Part shown: positions 40,030 to 43,650 of the stretch, one piece after another
Layout: every line of letters starts with the position of its first letter
Numbering within the stretch: position 1 is the stretch's first letter
Made by a program: the position numbers and the translations under genes
Notes under the pieces: generated by a model
Database searches by the model: none
Told to the model about the DNA's origin: nothing
What the model saw: only the letters and a program-made list of their open reading frames with translations
From: Candidatus Caldarchaeum sp.
GTDB taxonomy: Archaea > Thermoproteota > Nitrososphaeria_A > Caldarchaeales > Caldarchaeaceae
Assembly: GCA_038831915.1 (NCBI GenBank)
Contig: JAWBKB010000002.1
Span: forward strand, 64,001 to 128,000
Direction of reading: 5' to 3'
Length of the DNA: 64,000 bases

Positions 40030-41011
40030 CTATTTCGAGATAATATTTTGAAACGGGGTTGGCGAGCAGAACAACTCTGCTGACTTCGTCTTCAGTTACG
40101 TTAACGAATCCAATATATTTTGCCAGCTCGGCCGCGAATTCTTTGATTTCCTCTATAGAAGGCATGTTCTCTCTTCGAAGTCGTAGCTGAGATTCACCGA
40201 CGTGTGTGTATCCTTTGCATTCGACGAAATCAGGTTGCGCTTTTCTGATCAAATCAGCGTACGACTCTGGCGCATGCATGTTCAAATCCTTTACCAAAGT
40301 TAAGCGAACCACCTTTCTGCATGTAAACCTGGACATCAGGTCCAGGGATTTCATCAGTCTTTCCCAGCTATCCGATATTAACGGCTTGCATGTTTTGATA
40401 TGCGTTTCCCGGTCGGGGCCGTAAACGCTCAGGTATAGGCTGGTGGGTTGGCATTTGTGAAGTATTTCTGCGAGTCTTTCAGGCATGGTGCCGTTGCTGA
40501 CGAGAAAGGTAGTCATATCTCTACGAGTCGCCTCCTCGATGAGTTCTCCGATGTAGGGATAGAGAGTGGGCTCGCCGTCTAAGGAAATAGCGATGTGTTT
40601 GGGGTTCAGCGCTTCCGAGAACTTCTGCTTCGAAACTTTTGGATTGCCTCCGAAACCTGAAAGAAGCTGCCTCTGCTCCTGGATAATTTGGTCAAGTAGT
40701 TCAGAAGGGCTGTCCCATTGCCCGTCAAACGGTTGTACACGGTTTAGGGTGTGAAAACGCCAGCAAAAAACACACATCATGTTACAGTATTGAAGGGACG
40801 GGGTCATCTGAATACATCTATGACTTTCGATTCCGTACCAGCTTTTGTAGCATTTTTTACCGCCTCGAAGTGCCGACTTTGTCCAATGACAAACCTTGAC
40901 CGCTGAATGTCTGCCCACTATGCGGTAACCTGCTTTCTCAAACTTGCCGGCTTCAGCCACCGACGACCTCTTCGGCTTCTTGACTTCCTTCAGCGGTATG
41001 ACCGTAGTCAA
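40007..41011 (-). CDS. taw1: 4-demethylwyosine synthase (radical SAM)
   Basis: HSAVKVCHW, CYK, CNMMCVFCWR, ISLDGEP. Confidence 0.95.
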   Translation of the reverse strand: MTTVIPLKEVKKPKRSSVAEAGKFEKAGYRIVGRHSAVKVCHWTKSALRGGKKCYKSWYGIESHRCIQMTPSLQYCNMMCVFCWRFHTLNRVQPFDGQWDSPSELLDQIIQEQRQLLSGFGGNPKVSKQKFSEALNPKHIAISLDGEPTLYPYIGELIEEATRRDMTTFLVSNGTMPERLAEILHKCQPTSLYLSVYGPDRETHIKTCKPLISDSWERLMKSLDLMSRFTCRKVVRLTLVKDLNMHAPESYADLIRKAQPDFVECKGYTHVGESQLRLRRENMPSIEEIKEFAAELAKYIGFVNVTEDEVSRVVLLANPVSKYYLEIANRLTQQ

Positions 41012-41070
41012 CCCAGCCCATTAACAAATAAGCGAATCATTTAATCTTTCCCTCACCCACATAGAAAGTT

Positions 41071-41952
41071 GTGAAGTTCGGGGTTGTCGGCGCCTTGACA
41101 ATCGACGTTTATGGTGACAAGATATTTCTCGGAGGTCCTCCGTGGTTTGCCGGAGGAGCGGCCGCGTCCATCCATCACTCGGTAAATGTCTATTCCGCAG
41201 TTGGAGAACTCGATTTTCCACAATCTTTCTATGACCAGCTCGTGAAAGCGCGTGTGAACATCTCTAAAATAGTCAAGGTGCCTGACAGTTTTTCCTACAC
41301 TTTTCAGCACAACTATACGCAAAAAACTCGAAGGTCAAAGCTTATCAGGATAGGGCCCCGAATTCCAGAGGATAGTCTCGCCGACATCGACGTCGACAGC
41401 CTACTGTTGTCACCGGTTTACCGCGAAGCCGGCGAAAATCACTTCAAAATCCTTCGGAACAGTTCGTCTCATCTGGCCTTAGACATTCAAGGGTTTCTCC
41501 GCGAGGCCGACGACTCCGGAAACGTGTTTCTAGTTTCAAAAGAACTGGGACATTTGCTGAAGTCAGCTGATGTCATTCATTGCAGCGACGAAGAAGCCGT
41601 GGTGCTGTCTGGAGAAGCTGACCCGTTGCAAGCGGTTAAGAAAATAGCTAGGGCCGCACCTGGAGTTGTGCTGGTAGGCTCGAGAACAGGGTTGTTGGCT
41701 GCACATCGAGGCATGGTCAGCTTCTTCAGCATCAACCTTGAACACAGTGATGTTGATCCAACAGGCGCTGGAGACATGCTTACAGCTCTTCTTGTCGCTT
41801 TCGTTCGGGAAGCAGACTCGGCGACCGAGGCGACTGTATCGGCTTTGGCGCATCTCGTAGAACTGCTCCGCAGACCCCGGGAATCACGGTTCATTCAACC
41901 TGTCCATCCGCGGCCCGAGCTTGTTCATCTACTGTGGACAACGCCCGTTTAG
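41071..41952 (+). CDS. PfkB family carbohydrate/nucleoside kinase
   Basis: GGPP, LDIQGFLR, DPTGAGD. Confidence 0.9.
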   Translation: MKFGVVGALTIDVYGDKIFLGGPPWFAGGAAASIHHSVNVYSAVGELDFPQSFYDQLVKARVNISKIVKVPDSFSYTFQHNYTQKTRRSKLIRIGPRIPEDSLADIDVDSLLLSPVYREAGENHFKILRNSSSHLALDIQGFLREADDSGNVFLVSKELGHLLKSADVIHCSDEEAVVLSGEADPLQAVKKIARAAPGVVLVGSRTGLLAAHRGMVSFFSINLEHSDVDPTGAGDMLTALLVAFVREADSATEATVSALAHLVELLRRPRESRFIQPVHPRPELVHLLWTTPV

Positions 41953-42208
41953 CCCGTTTGTTTCCAGATTTCATTAATTTTTTCACCTTGTTTACGAGGC
42001 TTGGATAACGGTCCTTCAATGCCTTTTCAACGATGTCCGCAAGCTCTTCGCTGATGCTATAGCGGGGAATAACGTTCTTACGGTAGTTGAACACGGCGGT
42101 CGCGACCGGCGAATAGAATGCGAGTCGGGGCTGTTTTTTCGCGTAATCCACGGATTGTTTCAAGATTTTGTCGTCGATTTTGTTCTGTATGGTTTTCCTC
42201 CTTTTCAT
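41891..42208 (-). CDS. segB: SegB-like ribbon-helix-helix DNA-binding protein
   Basis: YxxKxPxxxxxSxxxxxVxxYxxxxxP...EKxLKxxYPxL pattern aligns without gaps to Sulfolobus SegB as recalled from memory. Confidence 0.7.
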   Translation of the reverse strand: MKRRKTIQNKIDDKILKQSVDYAKKQPRLAFYSPVATAVFNYRKNVIPRYSISEELADIVEKALKDRYPSLVNKVKKLMKSGNKRAKRALSTVDEQARAADGQVE

Positions 42209-42218
42209 GATGACTAGG

Positions 42219-42246
42219 TTTACCTTTTACCTTTTAACGTTTACCT
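42219..42246. repeat. tandem heptad array TTTACCT-TTTACCT-TTTAACG-TTTACCT over the segB promoter
   Basis: Read directly; includes minus-strand TTAAAA 24-29 nt upstream of the segB ATG. Confidence 0.85.
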
Positions 42247-42603
42247 CGAATCATCAAAGCACAGGTTTCAGTGCGTGTGCGATCTTTCGAACGGTGTGAA
42301 GGATTTTTAAACACGGGGGCTTGTACAACGCGTATTGAGATGAAATAGAGGTTGAAATAAACGAGGTCATGCAATTCAATGCTGGTTGATTTGTGGTTAA
42401 ATGTGGTGTGCTATCGCCGGGGTCTGAGGTCGAAAAAGGGCTTAACAACACTTTTGCCATATGAATCGGTTGGAAAATCGGACAGTTGGTTCCCTAATTC
42501 AATTGGCATTGTTGACAGTAGAATACCATAGGATAGCCGTATTAACAGTGTTCAGTAAATCGAACGGCTACCATTACATACTGGTTCAATGAAAAATGTA
42601 TGG

Positions 42604-42627
42604 AGGTAAACCTTTTACGGTTTACCT
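42604..42627. repeat. second heptad cluster AGGTAAA-cct-TTTACGG-TTTACCT (also a 9-6-9 inverted repeat)
   Basis: Read directly: AGGTAAACC/GGTTTACCT. Confidence 0.75.
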
Positions 42628-42999
42628 TGATGAGCGGTCCGCATAGTGTCTGACAAAGCTTTCTGGATTCAGCTTTTTCACTATGTGTTCAAAGGCTTTA
42701 TCGGGTTCGCTGTCCTCTCCGCATGTGTAGATGTCAACGGTGGCGTATCGGTATTGGTTCCAAGTGTGTACCGCTACATGGCTTTCCTTGATCAACGCGA
42801 TGACCGATACTCCGCCTTTTTCACCGCCGAACTTCCACGACCTCAGGGAGACCAGATTCATCTTCGCTATTTTGACAGCTTCGAGCACCGTCTTGCGCAT
42901 GAATTTTTCGTCAAGCAGCAGTTCGGAGGGGCATCCGTAAAGGTTTCCGAAGACATGTTTCCCAACTATTTGTTTCTGAACCGTTTTTCCTTCAAGCAT
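42622..42999 (-). CDS. pyruvoyl-dependent decarboxylase of the AdoMetDC family, probably crenarchaeal-type arginine decarboxylase
   Basis: ESH cleavage site; [35 protein letters not shown]; GAGGT RBS. Confidence 0.88.
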
Positions 43000-43209
43000 T
43001 TCTCTTTCTGCTTACCTCAAAATCGTTGACAAAAAGATTTAGATATAAATCATTTGTTGACAACATCAGCAGACGAAAAGATTTGCGACGATTTCTGTCA
43101 GTTTAGAAATTTTTTTGCCCGAAAAATACGTGCTTATCCAAGTTTTCGAACGCATCGAAAATTTGGCCATGAGCAAAGATTATTGGCTGGACATGCAACA
43201 CGTCGGGTG

Positions 43210-43650
43210 ATGAATCCACTGCAGCCTGGCGTTTATGCTCGTGGTCGACTTGACTTTAGAAAACTTTTCGACAGTGTTCTTTCCTTCGTGTCTGATGGCT
43301 CGTGTGGGGCAGCTGCTTTTTTCATCGGGATAGTCAAGCGCGCTGGCAAAGGAGCGTTCCCGGTTGATCAAGTTGTGATGGAATCCTACGAAGAGCATGC
43401 AAACAAGGCCTTGAAAAGAATTTGCGATGAAGTAGCCGCCGAATATGGTTTGAAGTTTGTAGGCATATGGCATTTGGTTGGCTCGTTCACGGTGGGTGAA
43501 CCGGTGGTTTTCGTTTGCGCGGCTGGAGAGCACAGAGACGAGGTATTTAGAGGCCTTAGAACAGCTGTTGAAAGATACAAACGCGAGCCGGCTTTGTTCA
43601 AGAAAGAGGTTTATGTCGACGGCACGTCGGCATGGATGGAGGGAGCTTGA
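43210..43650 (+). CDS. moaE: molybdopterin synthase catalytic subunit MoaE
   Basis: GAAAFFIGIVK, ESY, HR, KREPALFKKE; ATG 43210. Confidence 0.93.
   Translation: MNPLQPGVYARGRLDFRKLFDSVLSFVSDGSCGAAAFFIGIVKRAGKGAFPVDQVVMESYEEHANKALKRICDEVAAEYGLKFVGIWHLVGSFTVGEPVVFVCAAGEHRDEVFRGLRTAVERYKREPALFKKEVYVDGTSAWMEGA

Follow-up and report, generated by a model that had tools for sequence, protein, structure and literature searches.

A conserved SegB-domain protein of the Caldarchaeales without an adjacent SegA, and its candidate upstream targets

We found that a small protein of Candidatus Caldarchaeum sp. is, on the evidence of sequence comparison, a true homolog of the C-terminal DNA-binding domain of the archaeal segregation protein SegB. 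Its gene lies at 41891..42208 on the minus strand of the window, the 64,000-nucleotide stretch of assembly GCA_038831915.1 that we analyzed (contig JAWBKB010000002.1, positions 64,001 to 128,000), and encodes 105 amino acids from an ATG start, as indicated by the ORF list, by homology to PDB chains and profiles, and by conservation among orthologs. A prior reading of this DNA from its letters alone (the sequence-only reading) had pointed to this ORF as an orphan SegB-like protein, and both the 105-aa frame and the core that it quoted are present. We think it fairly probable that this is a stand-alone SegB-type ribbon-helix-helix (RHH) protein that targets the region upstream of its own gene, with no ATPase involved. 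The host lineage belongs to the hot-spring Aigarchaeota.

RESULTS

Sequence and fold comparisons relate the protein to the DNA-binding domain of SegB

A phmmer search with this protein against all PDB chains returned SegB (7duv_A, E 7.2e-7, 32.9 bits; 7dv2_A, E 1.1e-6), with the best non-SegB match at only E 0.31. The alignment pairs residues 6-82 of the query with residues 31-106 of the SegB chain and contains one single-residue gap. The sequence-only reading had set the protein against the Sulfolobus SegB core and matched it, ungapped, at Y, K-x-P, S, V, Y, P, S, EK-x-LK and YP-x-L; the SegB core that it used is correct, every one of these identities occurs in the phmmer alignment, and the sole gap falls upstream of the core. 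A profile of 21 orthologs likewise matched SegB in the PDB (E 1.3e-6; next match E 1.1), and hhalign against four Sulfolobaceae SegBs from segA-segB operons gave 89.6% probability and E 1.9e-6 over 59 columns. By all three methods, the homology covers the C-terminal DNA-binding domain (SegB residues about 35-109), and these scores bear out the proposal of a SegB domain homolog in a non-Sulfolobales lineage. When the 21-ortholog profile was run against 1.84 billion proteins, it recovered 262 cluster representatives at E ≤ 1e-3, which bridge the Caldarchaeales proteins to euryarchaeal SegBs.

Routine annotation does not detect this relationship. Scans against Pfam and NCBIfam assigned the protein to no family, but the missing NCBIfam family is uninformative, because a true Sulfolobaceae SegB also gets none. 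Similarly, BLASTP gave no alignment between the protein and the SegB of genome G183, although phmmer aligns the same pair; we attribute this failure to BLAST word seeding. In the databases, the SegB-like proteins are all named "hypothetical protein."

In the protein, residues 1-11 form a short basic N-terminus and residues from about 12 to 82 the SegB-type domain, after which comes a basic tail that is poorly conserved; 20 residues are invariant across 21 sequences. PMC8682754 gives K52, W56, K75, S77, R78 and K81 as the DNA-contact residues of SegB. Mapped through the phmmer alignment, K52 corresponds to R28, which is invariant in 21/21 orthologs (the same paper gives Arg at this position in euryarchaea), W56 to Y32 and S77 to S53, both also invariant among the 21. 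The other three contacts are not retained (K75 to S51, R78 to E54, K81 to A57), which counts against our main reading. Moreover, the SegB signature K/R-D/N-P-K/R-I-G/T-V/L-W-S-Y/P-P/E, as given in section 7 of bioRxiv 10.1101/2025.04.15.649018, is matched by K-Q-P-R-L-A-F-Y-S-P-V at only 5/11 positions (K, P, R, S, P). At the remaining positions the changes are conservative (L instead of I, Y instead of W), and the KQPRLAFYSPV form is invariant across the order.

An AF2 model of the monomer, of middling confidence (pLDDT 68), has helices at 13-25, 34-43, 54-67 and 69-101 and no strand. Its top row in VIA-align was SegB 7dv2_C, a weak match (Z 3.7, rmsd 3.9 Å, 57 residues; next 2.7). The suggested Foldseek comparison with SegB structures failed to bear out the similarity, with no match for the monomer at E ≤ 0.001 and SegB second at E 1.7 in a chain-by-chain search of what is an intertwined dimer fold. 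We also modeled P0031, a natural two-domain relative that scores 73.6 bits to the profile. Foldseek, again chain by chain, found no match at E ≤ 0.001 for this tandem model either, but the model itself (pLDDT 94.6) is twice alpha-beta-alpha-alpha-alpha. Of 48,161 chains compared, only four score Z ≥ 5 with it (two SegB chains, single-chain Arc and an F-plasmid relaxosome chain), and SegB 7duv_A superimposes at Z 6.3 and rmsd 2.3 Å over 74/74 residues; omega is also among its structural neighbors.

Repeats and a conserved element lie upstream of the gene

The gene is flanked by a pfkB-family kinase gene (41071..41952, plus strand; PF00294, 2.3e-7) and an S-adenosylmethionine decarboxylase gene of the speH type (42622..42999, minus strand; PF02675, 2.3e-35). 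These matches, which we use as context only, confirm the neighbors named in the sequence-only reading. The 3' ends of the convergent SegB-like and pfkB-like genes overlap by 62 nt (41891-41952), as they do in relatives, and the gene order TYW1-pfkB-X-speH-MoaE is kept in family f1 only.

Four consecutive 7-bp units (GGTAAAC GTTAAAA GGTAAAA GGTAAAC on the coding strand; 42218..42245, minus strand) end about 10 nt before the ATG. Nowhere else in the genome do at least three such words cluster within 45 bp (0 in 5 shuffles), and in the other families the promoter is flanked by direct or inverted repeats of the GGTAAAC word. Judging from the known archaeal promoter layout, we infer that the block is a BRE/TATA-like promoter of a leaderless mRNA. 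It possibly doubles as a candidate operator, or it may be nothing beyond a strong BRE/TATA promoter.

Palindromes of the form TGTTCGA-N4-TCGAACA occur at two positions. The proximal, an 18-bp degenerate copy with 2 mismatches (CGTTCGAAAGATCGCACA; 42276..42293), lies 85 nt upstream of the ATG. In most family f1 relatives this palindrome is perfect or carries 1 mismatch, and in family f3 it is found at -100/-104. The distal copy (CGTTCGATTTACTGAACA, 3 mismatches; 42549..42566) lies 358 nt upstream. A conserved non-coding element of roughly 60 nt (42442..42531, minus strand; 20-nt core 42464-42483) comprises a loose dyad of the TAATTCAAC-N4-6-GTTGAATTA type and, after it, GATCCAACTGT(C/A)CGA..CC-CAACCGATT. 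In families f1 and f4 this element adjoins the gene, in f3 (L032) it is found on the downstream side, and in f2 its orientation is reversed; in our genome it falls within an RNA-library contig (42429-42625). Another factor could bind the palindromes and the 60-nt element, or these could belong to an RNA. No Rfam family was found in 41000-43500 at E ≤ 1, and RNAalifold on both strands of the 318-nt upstream region returned palindromes only. For the dyad of the 60-nt element, 64.9% of cells are paired and the covariation is 0.184 versus 0.130, with 8/500 shuffles as high, a signal too weak for an RNA hairpin to be called. Farther upstream, a perfect inverted repeat, AGGTAAACC-N6-GGTTTACCT (42604..42627), spans the speH stop codon, is followed by a T-rich run and is probably the speH terminator hairpin. 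It includes the GGTAAAC word of the promoter block and is the genome's only GGTAAAC-N5-9-GTTTACC.

We considered that the protein might be a chromosome-wide organizer or centromere-binding protein with a SegA-independent, chromatin-like role, for which this upstream region would be centromere-like. Sulfolobales SegB sets a precedent, as it binds 32-46 sites and builds higher-order protein-DNA assemblies according to PMC12284271 and PMC8682754. Furthermore, the gene is universal, single-copy and strongly conserved in the order, as for a housekeeping chromosome protein, and its own non-coding element has been retained despite varying genomic contexts and orientations. However, we did not find a repeated genomic motif. 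At ≤ 2 mismatches the palindrome shows no excess over control across the genome, and the heptad cluster, like the 60-nt core, occurs there only once. The 13-bp Sulfolobus site TCTAGA-S-TCTAGA, at ≤ 2 mismatches, has 6 matches in the genome, none of them at the locus, versus 13 for the control; four such matches cluster around the segAB locus of the Sulfolobaceae genome G116. A motor protein that could move a centromere is also lacking. We regard a chromosome-wide role as possible but unlikely. The segregation or nucleoid "system" of the sequence-only reading is similarly unsupported, given that the candidate target sites that we found are only local and unique and that the Sulfolobus site is absent from the locus.

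A further reading is a SegB module without a motor, kept by the Aigarchaeota, in which the protein, the ~60-nt element and the flanking palindromes would make up a dedicated locus of architectural or centromere-like type, to mark or tether the chromosome with no ParA; we offer it tentatively and consider it doubtful. A replication origin at the locus was considered and set aside: Orc1/Cdc6 genes lie elsewhere, in the closed genome G010 at 0.95, 464 and 697 kb, compared to 1,540 kb for the locus.

SegA and the SegA-activating peptide were not found

The sequence-only reading held that no ParA lies in the window and none beside the gene, and both statements stand. A six-frame scan for the deviant Walker A motif found no such open frame on contig C2, which carries the window, and the flanks of the SegB-like gene in 47 Caldarchaeales genomes hold no ParA. 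In SegAB systems as defined in the literature, segB directly follows segA and overlaps it; as positive controls, segA was found directly upstream in 4/4 Sulfolobaceae loci and ParA in 72/76 euryarchaeal loci. Genome-wide searches found no SegA/ParA in our genome (95.6% complete, 34 contigs) or in G010, of the same genus; a ParA may lie on unassembled DNA of the former, but the closed G010 argues against this. A Sulfolobaceae SegA query reached at most 36.2 bits in our genome, with a Mrp/MinD-type protein, and 29.5 bits in G010. The six-frame scan of our genome yielded five [KR]GGxGK[ST] open frames, of which four could be classed (one Mrp/MinD-type, one Mrp/ApbC and two Get3/ArsA) and the fifth, on contig C1, is a frame of 104 aa. 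The Mrp/MinD-type ATPase matches 3vx3_A best in the PDB (160.7 bits, compared to 34.5 for SegA 7dut_A). In a few relatives (G030, G038, G040 and G028), a true ParA is present away from the SegB-like gene.

According to PMC8682754, the N-terminal peptide of SegB (its conserved first 10-12 residues) binds and activates SegA. Indeed, 4/4 Sulfolobaceae SegBs start with MSELD(F/L)(L/I)L, while 76/77 euryarchaeal relatives carry the peptide LG(K/R)GLDALI, and 72 of the 76 peptide-bearing loci sit directly behind ParA. This euryarchaeal peptide resembles the ParA-activating N-terminus of bacterial ParB. Neither form (MSELDFLL-type or LGKGLDALI) was found in any of 43 Caldarchaeales genes, even with the entire open frame preceding the core included. 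The sequence-only reading had left two options, that the protein works with an unlinked ATPase or alone. Because our genome yielded no SegA and the protein no SegA-activating peptide, we conclude that an unlinked ATPase is unlikely and that "alone" is likely.

The protein might nevertheless be a partition adaptor for a different deviant-Walker-A ATPase (Mrp/ApbC-like, Mrp/MinD-type or Get3/ArsA-like) that its MKRRK N-terminus would stimulate. The genome does encode four such ATPases, the N-terminus is Lys/Arg-rich in all orthologs, and a divergent Mrp/ApbC-like gene (367-380 aa) adjoins the SegB-like gene in 4/47 Caldarchaeales genomes (G390, G033, G037 and G039). However, these four represent only two genera of one family, the ATPases match Fe-S carrier, hydrogenase-maturation and tail-anchor families better than ParA, the gene for the Mrp/MinD-type ATPase adjoins a HypA-looking ORF, and the conserved SegA-binding motif is missing from the Caldarchaeales proteins. 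We therefore consider such an adaptor role quite improbable.

The ORF is conserved and under purifying selection

The SegB-like gene is single-copy in our genome and occurs in 40/41 relatives. The sequence-only reading had named lack of conservation as grounds for abandoning its proposal, and this is not what we observed: 58 of the 59 other sampled genomes of the order carry the gene (f1 16/16, f4 24/25, f2 15/15, f3 3/3). Since the Caldarchaeales profile detects only 1/15 Sulfolobaceae genomes, absence outside the order means absence with this profile. Core differences among 14 orthologs fall at codon positions 1, 2 and 3 in the ratio 2007 : 1223 : 3997, and from the third-position excess we conclude that the ORF is coding and under purifying selection. 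Contigs of RNA library X11 map to 40900-40987, 42429-42625 and 42599-42838 (the third also matches 42933-42968); none lies over the SegB-like ORF, although contigs cannot show absence. These conservation data, together with the 20 invariant residues, the third-position excess and the conserved promoter block, contradict the idea that the gene is a degenerating leftover from a lost segAB operon or that the ORF was called in error and has no function, and we give this idea almost no credence despite the missing Pfam and NCBIfam families, the "hypothetical protein" names and the lack of X11 contigs over the ORF.

DISCUSSION

The reading that we favor is a SegB-type RHH protein working without an ATPase on the DNA upstream of its own gene. 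The paired beta-strands of a dimer would enter the major groove, with Arg28 in place of SegB Lys52 and Tyr32 in place of Trp56. The protein would chiefly target the conserved repeats upstream of its own gene, that is, the GGTAAAC words, the TGTTCGA-N4-TCGAACA palindromes and/or the ~60-nt element, and binding there would let the SegB-like protein at least control its own transcription and shape that one locus.

According to published comparative work, every segB lies behind segA, and within Thermoproteota SegB is confined to Sulfolobaceae; the portions of the full-text literature that we found on SegB with Aigarchaeota or Thaumarchaeota report no such homolog. Here, a whole order has a conserved SegB-domain protein without SegA or the SegA-activating tail, such that nature has separated the DNA-binding half of SegB from the half that activates the motor. 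The Caldarchaeales protein thus provides a clean system for the role of the DNA-binding half on its own, and bears on the origin of SegB. If the motor-less module exists, the SegB DNA-binding domain would predate the SegAB machine and be more widespread than it; the machine would have arisen once a ParB-like activating peptide and a neighboring ParA had been added to the domain. Alternatively, the domain may outlive the loss of SegA through an essential ATPase-independent role; a quick tree of the SegB domain (75 columns) did not separate loss of SegA from a primitively partnerless state.

Compared to SegB of Saccharolobus solfataricus and Sulfolobus acidocaldarius (7DUV, 7DV2), the Caldarchaeales protein probably has the same succession of a helix, a strand and three helices in a homologous C-terminal domain of ~65-75 residues. 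Like Sulfolobus SegB, it is small (about 100 aa), keeps the groove residue as Arg and the next aromatic as Tyr, and has candidate sites directly upstream of its own gene, as are sites S1 and S2. Unlike Sulfolobus SegB, it has no segA upstream, none found in the genome and no MSELDFLL-type peptide; it retains 5/11 signature positions, with K75, R78 and K81 changed, and its locus lacks the 13-bp TCTAGA-S-TCTAGA.

Euryarchaeal SegB-type proteins are nearer to those of the Caldarchaeales than are Sulfolobaceae SegBs (50-114 versus 27-31 bits by profile score). The related-locus search reached only the euryarchaeal clade, and the loci compared come from Methanobacteriaceae, Thermococci, Archaeoglobaceae, Methanomicrobiales and Methanotrichaceae. 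Both groups share the core (N/Q)PR(I/L)x(F/V/I)(W/Y)SP ... P(E/R)(F/Y)S(I/M)S ... YP.L, but the euryarchaeal proteins start with LG(K/R)GLDALI and have ParA directly upstream, whereas the Caldarchaeales have neither. The small RHH proteins omega of pSM19035, ParG, Arc and CopG show no detectable sequence relationship to the Caldarchaeales protein, which has no plasmid or toxin-antitoxin context, and the SegB-type domain differs from them in having one additional helix at its N-terminus and also a fourth one. It likely shares with them the mode of action, an RHH dimer bound to short direct or inverted repeats at its own promoter.

A conserved gene encoding a SegB-type domain

The SegB-like ORF described from the sequence alone was recovered on the minus strand at 41891-42208 (105 aa, ATG start, with the quoted core), between the neighbours named for it, a pfkB-family kinase gene (41071-41952, plus strand) and the S-adenosylmethionine decarboxylase gene speH (42622-42999, minus strand). 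The ORF converges with the pfkB-like gene, and the two share 62 nt at their 3' ends (41891-41952). In the SegB-like protein, the shared stretch corresponds to the tail, which is not conserved, and similar 3' overlaps of 53-68 nt are seen in genus relatives (L017-L019).

The gene is present in one copy in the source genome (G000; 1.59 Mb, 34 contigs, 95.6% complete) and in 40 of 41 relatives, G000 counted; the sole relative in which it was not found (G028) is 89% complete. In a 401-genome sample of the phylum, we found it in 16/16, 15/15, 3/3 and 24/25 genomes of families f1, f2, f3 and f4 of the order Candidatus Caldarchaeales, to which NCBI taxonomy assigns Ca. Caldarchaeum; beyond the order, the profile matched a single genome out of 341, from Sulfolobaceae (E 5e-6). 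The close homologues (from Candidatus Caldarchaeum sp., archaeon HR01, Aigarchaeota archaeon / Ca. Calditenuis and Nitrososphaeria archaeon) are all annotated as "hypothetical protein". An alignment of 21 sequences contains 20 invariant residues, and core substitutions at codon positions 1, 2 and 3 number 2007, 1223 and 3997; these sequence comparisons mark the ORF as a genuine gene subject to purifying selection. The synteny TYW1-pfkB-X-speH-MoaE is restricted to f1, and the other families have other neighbours.

The SegB core given in the sequence-only reading was correct, and SegB was the sole significant match when the protein was compared by phmmer to all PDB chains (7duv_A, E 7.2e-7; 7dv2_A, E 1.1e-6; then E 0.31), with residues 6-82 aligned to SegB 31-106 across one single-residue gap near the start. 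Similarly, a profile of 21 orthologues found SegB alone in the PDB (E 1.3e-6; runner-up E 1.1). The Sulfolobaceae match lies in a textbook operon (L066), in which a gene for a 220-aa ParA-like SegA overlaps that for a 125-aa SegB, and this SegB and three from other Sulfolobaceae genera served as references. Within their order, SegB was found in 4/4 Sulfolobaceae and in 0/37 from other families, in agreement with the literature. When compared profile to profile, the Caldarchaeales alignment matched the four references with 89.6% probability (E 1.9e-6, 59 columns). Among 1.84 billion proteins, the profile matched 262 cluster representatives at E <= 1e-3 and 74 at E <= 1e-10, a family that exceeds the 72 sequences of a published BLAST survey; the domain is nearly always C-terminal after a variable linker, as in SegB. 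By these alignments, the Caldarchaeales protein belongs to the SegB-domain superfamily.

The AF2 monomer was of middling quality (pLDDT 68); its helices follow the SegB order, and the strand region was modelled as coil, which is what a single chain lacking its partner should show. Foldseek with this monomer gave no significant match, and in VIA-align SegB came top with a weak score (Z 3.7, rmsd 3.9 A over 57 residues; second row 2.7). A natural two-domain relative, P0031 (73.6 bits to the profile), was modelled at pLDDT 94.6 as two helix-strand-helix-helix-helix units, and only four of 48,161 PDB representatives matched this model at Z >= 5 (following row Z 3.9): SegB twice (7duv_A: Z 6.3, rmsd 2.3 A, 74/74 residues), a permuted single-chain Arc and an F-plasmid relaxosome chain. 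From these matches to a predicted model, the family fold is probably the SegB-type ribbon-helix-helix (RHH). The proposed kinship to SegB held at the profile level.

P0031, modelled as an intramolecular RHH pair, is one of several natural chains that carry two SegB-type domains without an N-terminal motif (P0023, P0031, P0039, P0042, P0055, P0065, P0069, P0083, P0110, P0134, P0136, P0143 and P0151). A 322-aa Methanosaeta protein (P0011/P0159) has two domains after a long repeat-rich linker.

We transferred the DNA-contact residues named in excerpts of PMC8682754 through the phmmer alignment to 7duv_A. The groove-inserting Lys52 of SegB corresponds to Arg28, invariant in the orthologues, and Arg is also the residue of euryarchaeal SegBs at this position according to these excerpts. 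Trp56 and Ser77 correspond to Tyr32 and Ser53, both invariant, and three contacts are changed (Lys75 to Ser51, Arg78 to Glu54, Lys81 to Ala57). Since the contact residues are partly kept and partly changed, DNA binding is plausible, presumably with a different specificity. The Sulfolobus consensus, given as TCTAGA-S-TCTAGA in excerpted text of PMC12284271, had four matches clustered at the segAB locus of a Sulfolobaceae genome (G116); in G000 it occurred 6 times at <= 2 mismatches, compared to 13 for the reversed control, and never near the gene, consistent with a different DNA specificity.

Non-coding signals accompany the gene

Non-coding signals persist with the SegB-like gene although its neighbours differ between families. 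Directly before the start codon is a heptad block, GGTAAAC GTTAAAA GGTAAAA GGTAAAC (42218-42245), the only cluster of at least three such words in G000 (0 in 5 shuffles), whose position would fit, by analogy with archaeal promoter layout, the BRE/TATA box of a leaderless mRNA. At about the same place, inverted repeats of the GGTTTACC...GGTAAACC type occur in families f2 and f4. Families f1 and f3 share an 18-bp palindrome, TGTTCGA-N4-TCGAACA, 75-104 nt upstream of the gene, and f1 has another copy some 270 nt beyond it; both copies in the window are degenerate (2 and 3 mismatches). In four genus relatives, 7/8 copies with <= 1 mismatch are at the SegB-like locus; at <= 2 mismatches there was no excess over the control.

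An element of ~60 nt (42442-42531, minus strand), with a loose dyad and the sequence ...GT(C/A)CGA..CC-CAACCGATT, is unique in G000 and adjoins the gene in four families in varying position and orientation: upstream in f1 and f4, inverted in f2 and downstream in f3 (present in L032, not found in L031). Further copies include L017:1182-1271, L035:1986-2075 and L172:3102-3191. The element could serve as a binding site for a protein or encode a small RNA. Rfam assigned it to no known RNA family, RNAalifold found no structure other than the palindromes, and covariation in its dyad was weak. No Orc1/Cdc6 genes occur near the locus. In a metatranscriptome (X11), a 197-nt contig (42429-42625), intergenic downstream of speH, includes the element and overlaps a second contig extending into speH; transcription of part of the region is therefore probable, and the contigs suggest either a small RNA of its own or an extended 3' UTR of speH. 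The SegB-like ORF itself is covered by no RNA contig, and the contigs carry no weight on its expression.

Most likely, the protein is an RHH dimer that binds repeated sequences upstream of its own gene; it would at least autoregulate, and may assemble a specific nucleoprotein structure at that place. It might also organise the chromosome more widely, as reported for Sulfolobus SegB, but no repeated genomic site supports such a role.

No SegA/ParA partner gene was found

We searched G000 for ATPases with Pfam AAA_31 and CbiA and with a six-frame scan for the deviant Walker A motif [KR]GGxGK[ST], which yielded five open frames, four of them classed. The first (contig C13) encodes a 252-aa Mrp/MinD-type protein (best PDB match 3vx3_A, 160.7 bits, compared to 34.5 bits for SegA 7dut_A), another (C15) an Mrp/ApbC with a SUF-associated N-domain, and two in tandem (C24) Get3/ArsA proteins whose scores exceed the curated cut-off; the fifth (C1) has 104 aa with the motif near its end. 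None is on C2, the contig whose positions 64001-128000 are the window, in keeping with the claim that the window holds no ParA. The C13 protein (L067:1246-2377) is the sole SegA-like match in G000; its flanking ORFs, HypA-looking and a 394-aa Cys-rich ORF resembling an Fe-S protein (both by eye), point to ATPase-type nickel insertion, HypB-like, and we take 3vx3 to be a HypB-type protein.

With Sulfolobaceae SegA as query, the maximum was 36.2 bits in G000 and 29.5 bits in a closed genome of the same genus (G010). Real ParA (48-55 bits) appeared in this search in four genomes only, G028 and three members of one genus, g5 (G030, G038 and G040). The g5 ParA is preceded by its own small partner gene, and in G030 and G040 it and the SegB-like gene are on separate contigs. 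These loci (L070:1177-2369, L071:1154-2346 and L072:1077-2224) consist of a 106-120-aa gene, a ParA of 276-290 aa and more small genes, and resemble the partition cassette of a plasmid or integrated element.

The absence of an adjacent SegA/ParA was also upheld: 43/47 genomes have no deviant-Walker-A ORF within 1.5-2.5 kb of the gene, and in the other four (G390, G033, G037 and G039) this ORF is always divergent, 367-380 aa long and Mrp/ApbC-like. These neighbours (L065:3-1142, L169:808-1923, L170:3246-4346 and L171:3208-4332) belong to two genera of f4, and the ~60-nt element lies inside the shared intergenic region.

The sequence-only reading had proposed a segregation or nucleoid system working with an unlinked ATPase or alone. 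Action alone is likely, and work with another Walker-type ATPase is unlikely. The protein probably does not drive ParA-type partition, and the results lent no support to a segregation or nucleoid system as proposed.

Comparison with SegB systems

In the portions of the comparative literature available, segB is invariably downstream of segA and, in Thermoproteota, confined to Sulfolobaceae. A full-text literature search, including partial texts of PMC11381335 and PMC5120986, found no report of a SegB homologue in Aigarchaeota or Thaumarchaeota, where supplementary lists may hold some. In a quick tree (192 rows, 75 columns), the Caldarchaeales sequences and two metagenomic ones formed a clade of 13 rows (SH-aLRT 95), all without an N-terminal motif; with its deeper branches unresolved, the tree does not separate loss of SegA from a primitively partnerless state.

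According to excerpts of PMC8682754, SegB residues 1-33 are dispensable for DNA binding and required for SegA contact, and SegB without its first 21 no longer stimulates the SegA ATPase; section 7 of a preprint (bioRxiv 10.1101/2025.04.15.649018) describes the first 10-12 residues as conserved across SegBs. All four Sulfolobaceae SegBs begin with MSELD(F/L)(L/I)L. Family alignment provided 80 euryarchaeal loci, from Methanobacteriaceae, Thermococci, Archaeoglobaceae, Methanomicrobiales and Methanotrichaceae (L079-L158). An LG(K/R)GLDALI-type motif, with which most SegB-domain family members start (P0011-P0158), was present in 76/77 complete ORFs, and a ParA-like ORF ended at or <= 60 nt from the gene in 72/76 testable loci, four having too short an upstream flank. 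This motif resembles the ParA-activating N-terminus of bacterial ParB. The testable loci in which the scan showed no adjacent Walker-A ORF were L087, L104, L132 and L154; one Archaeoglobaceae genome has two copies, one with (L088) and one without (L087) an adjacent ParA, and partnerless SegB-type copies may thus occur outside Caldarchaeales too.

Neither motif was found in 43 Caldarchaeales genes when the entire open frame upstream of the core was read (four more loci did not fit the parsing pattern). Since four defining features were looked for and not found, the Caldarchaeales protein does not count as a SegB in operational terms. In contrast to the Sulfolobaceae and euryarchaeal proteins, it begins with a few Lys/Arg residues followed directly by the domain, and it corresponds to the DNA-binding half of SegB standing by itself.
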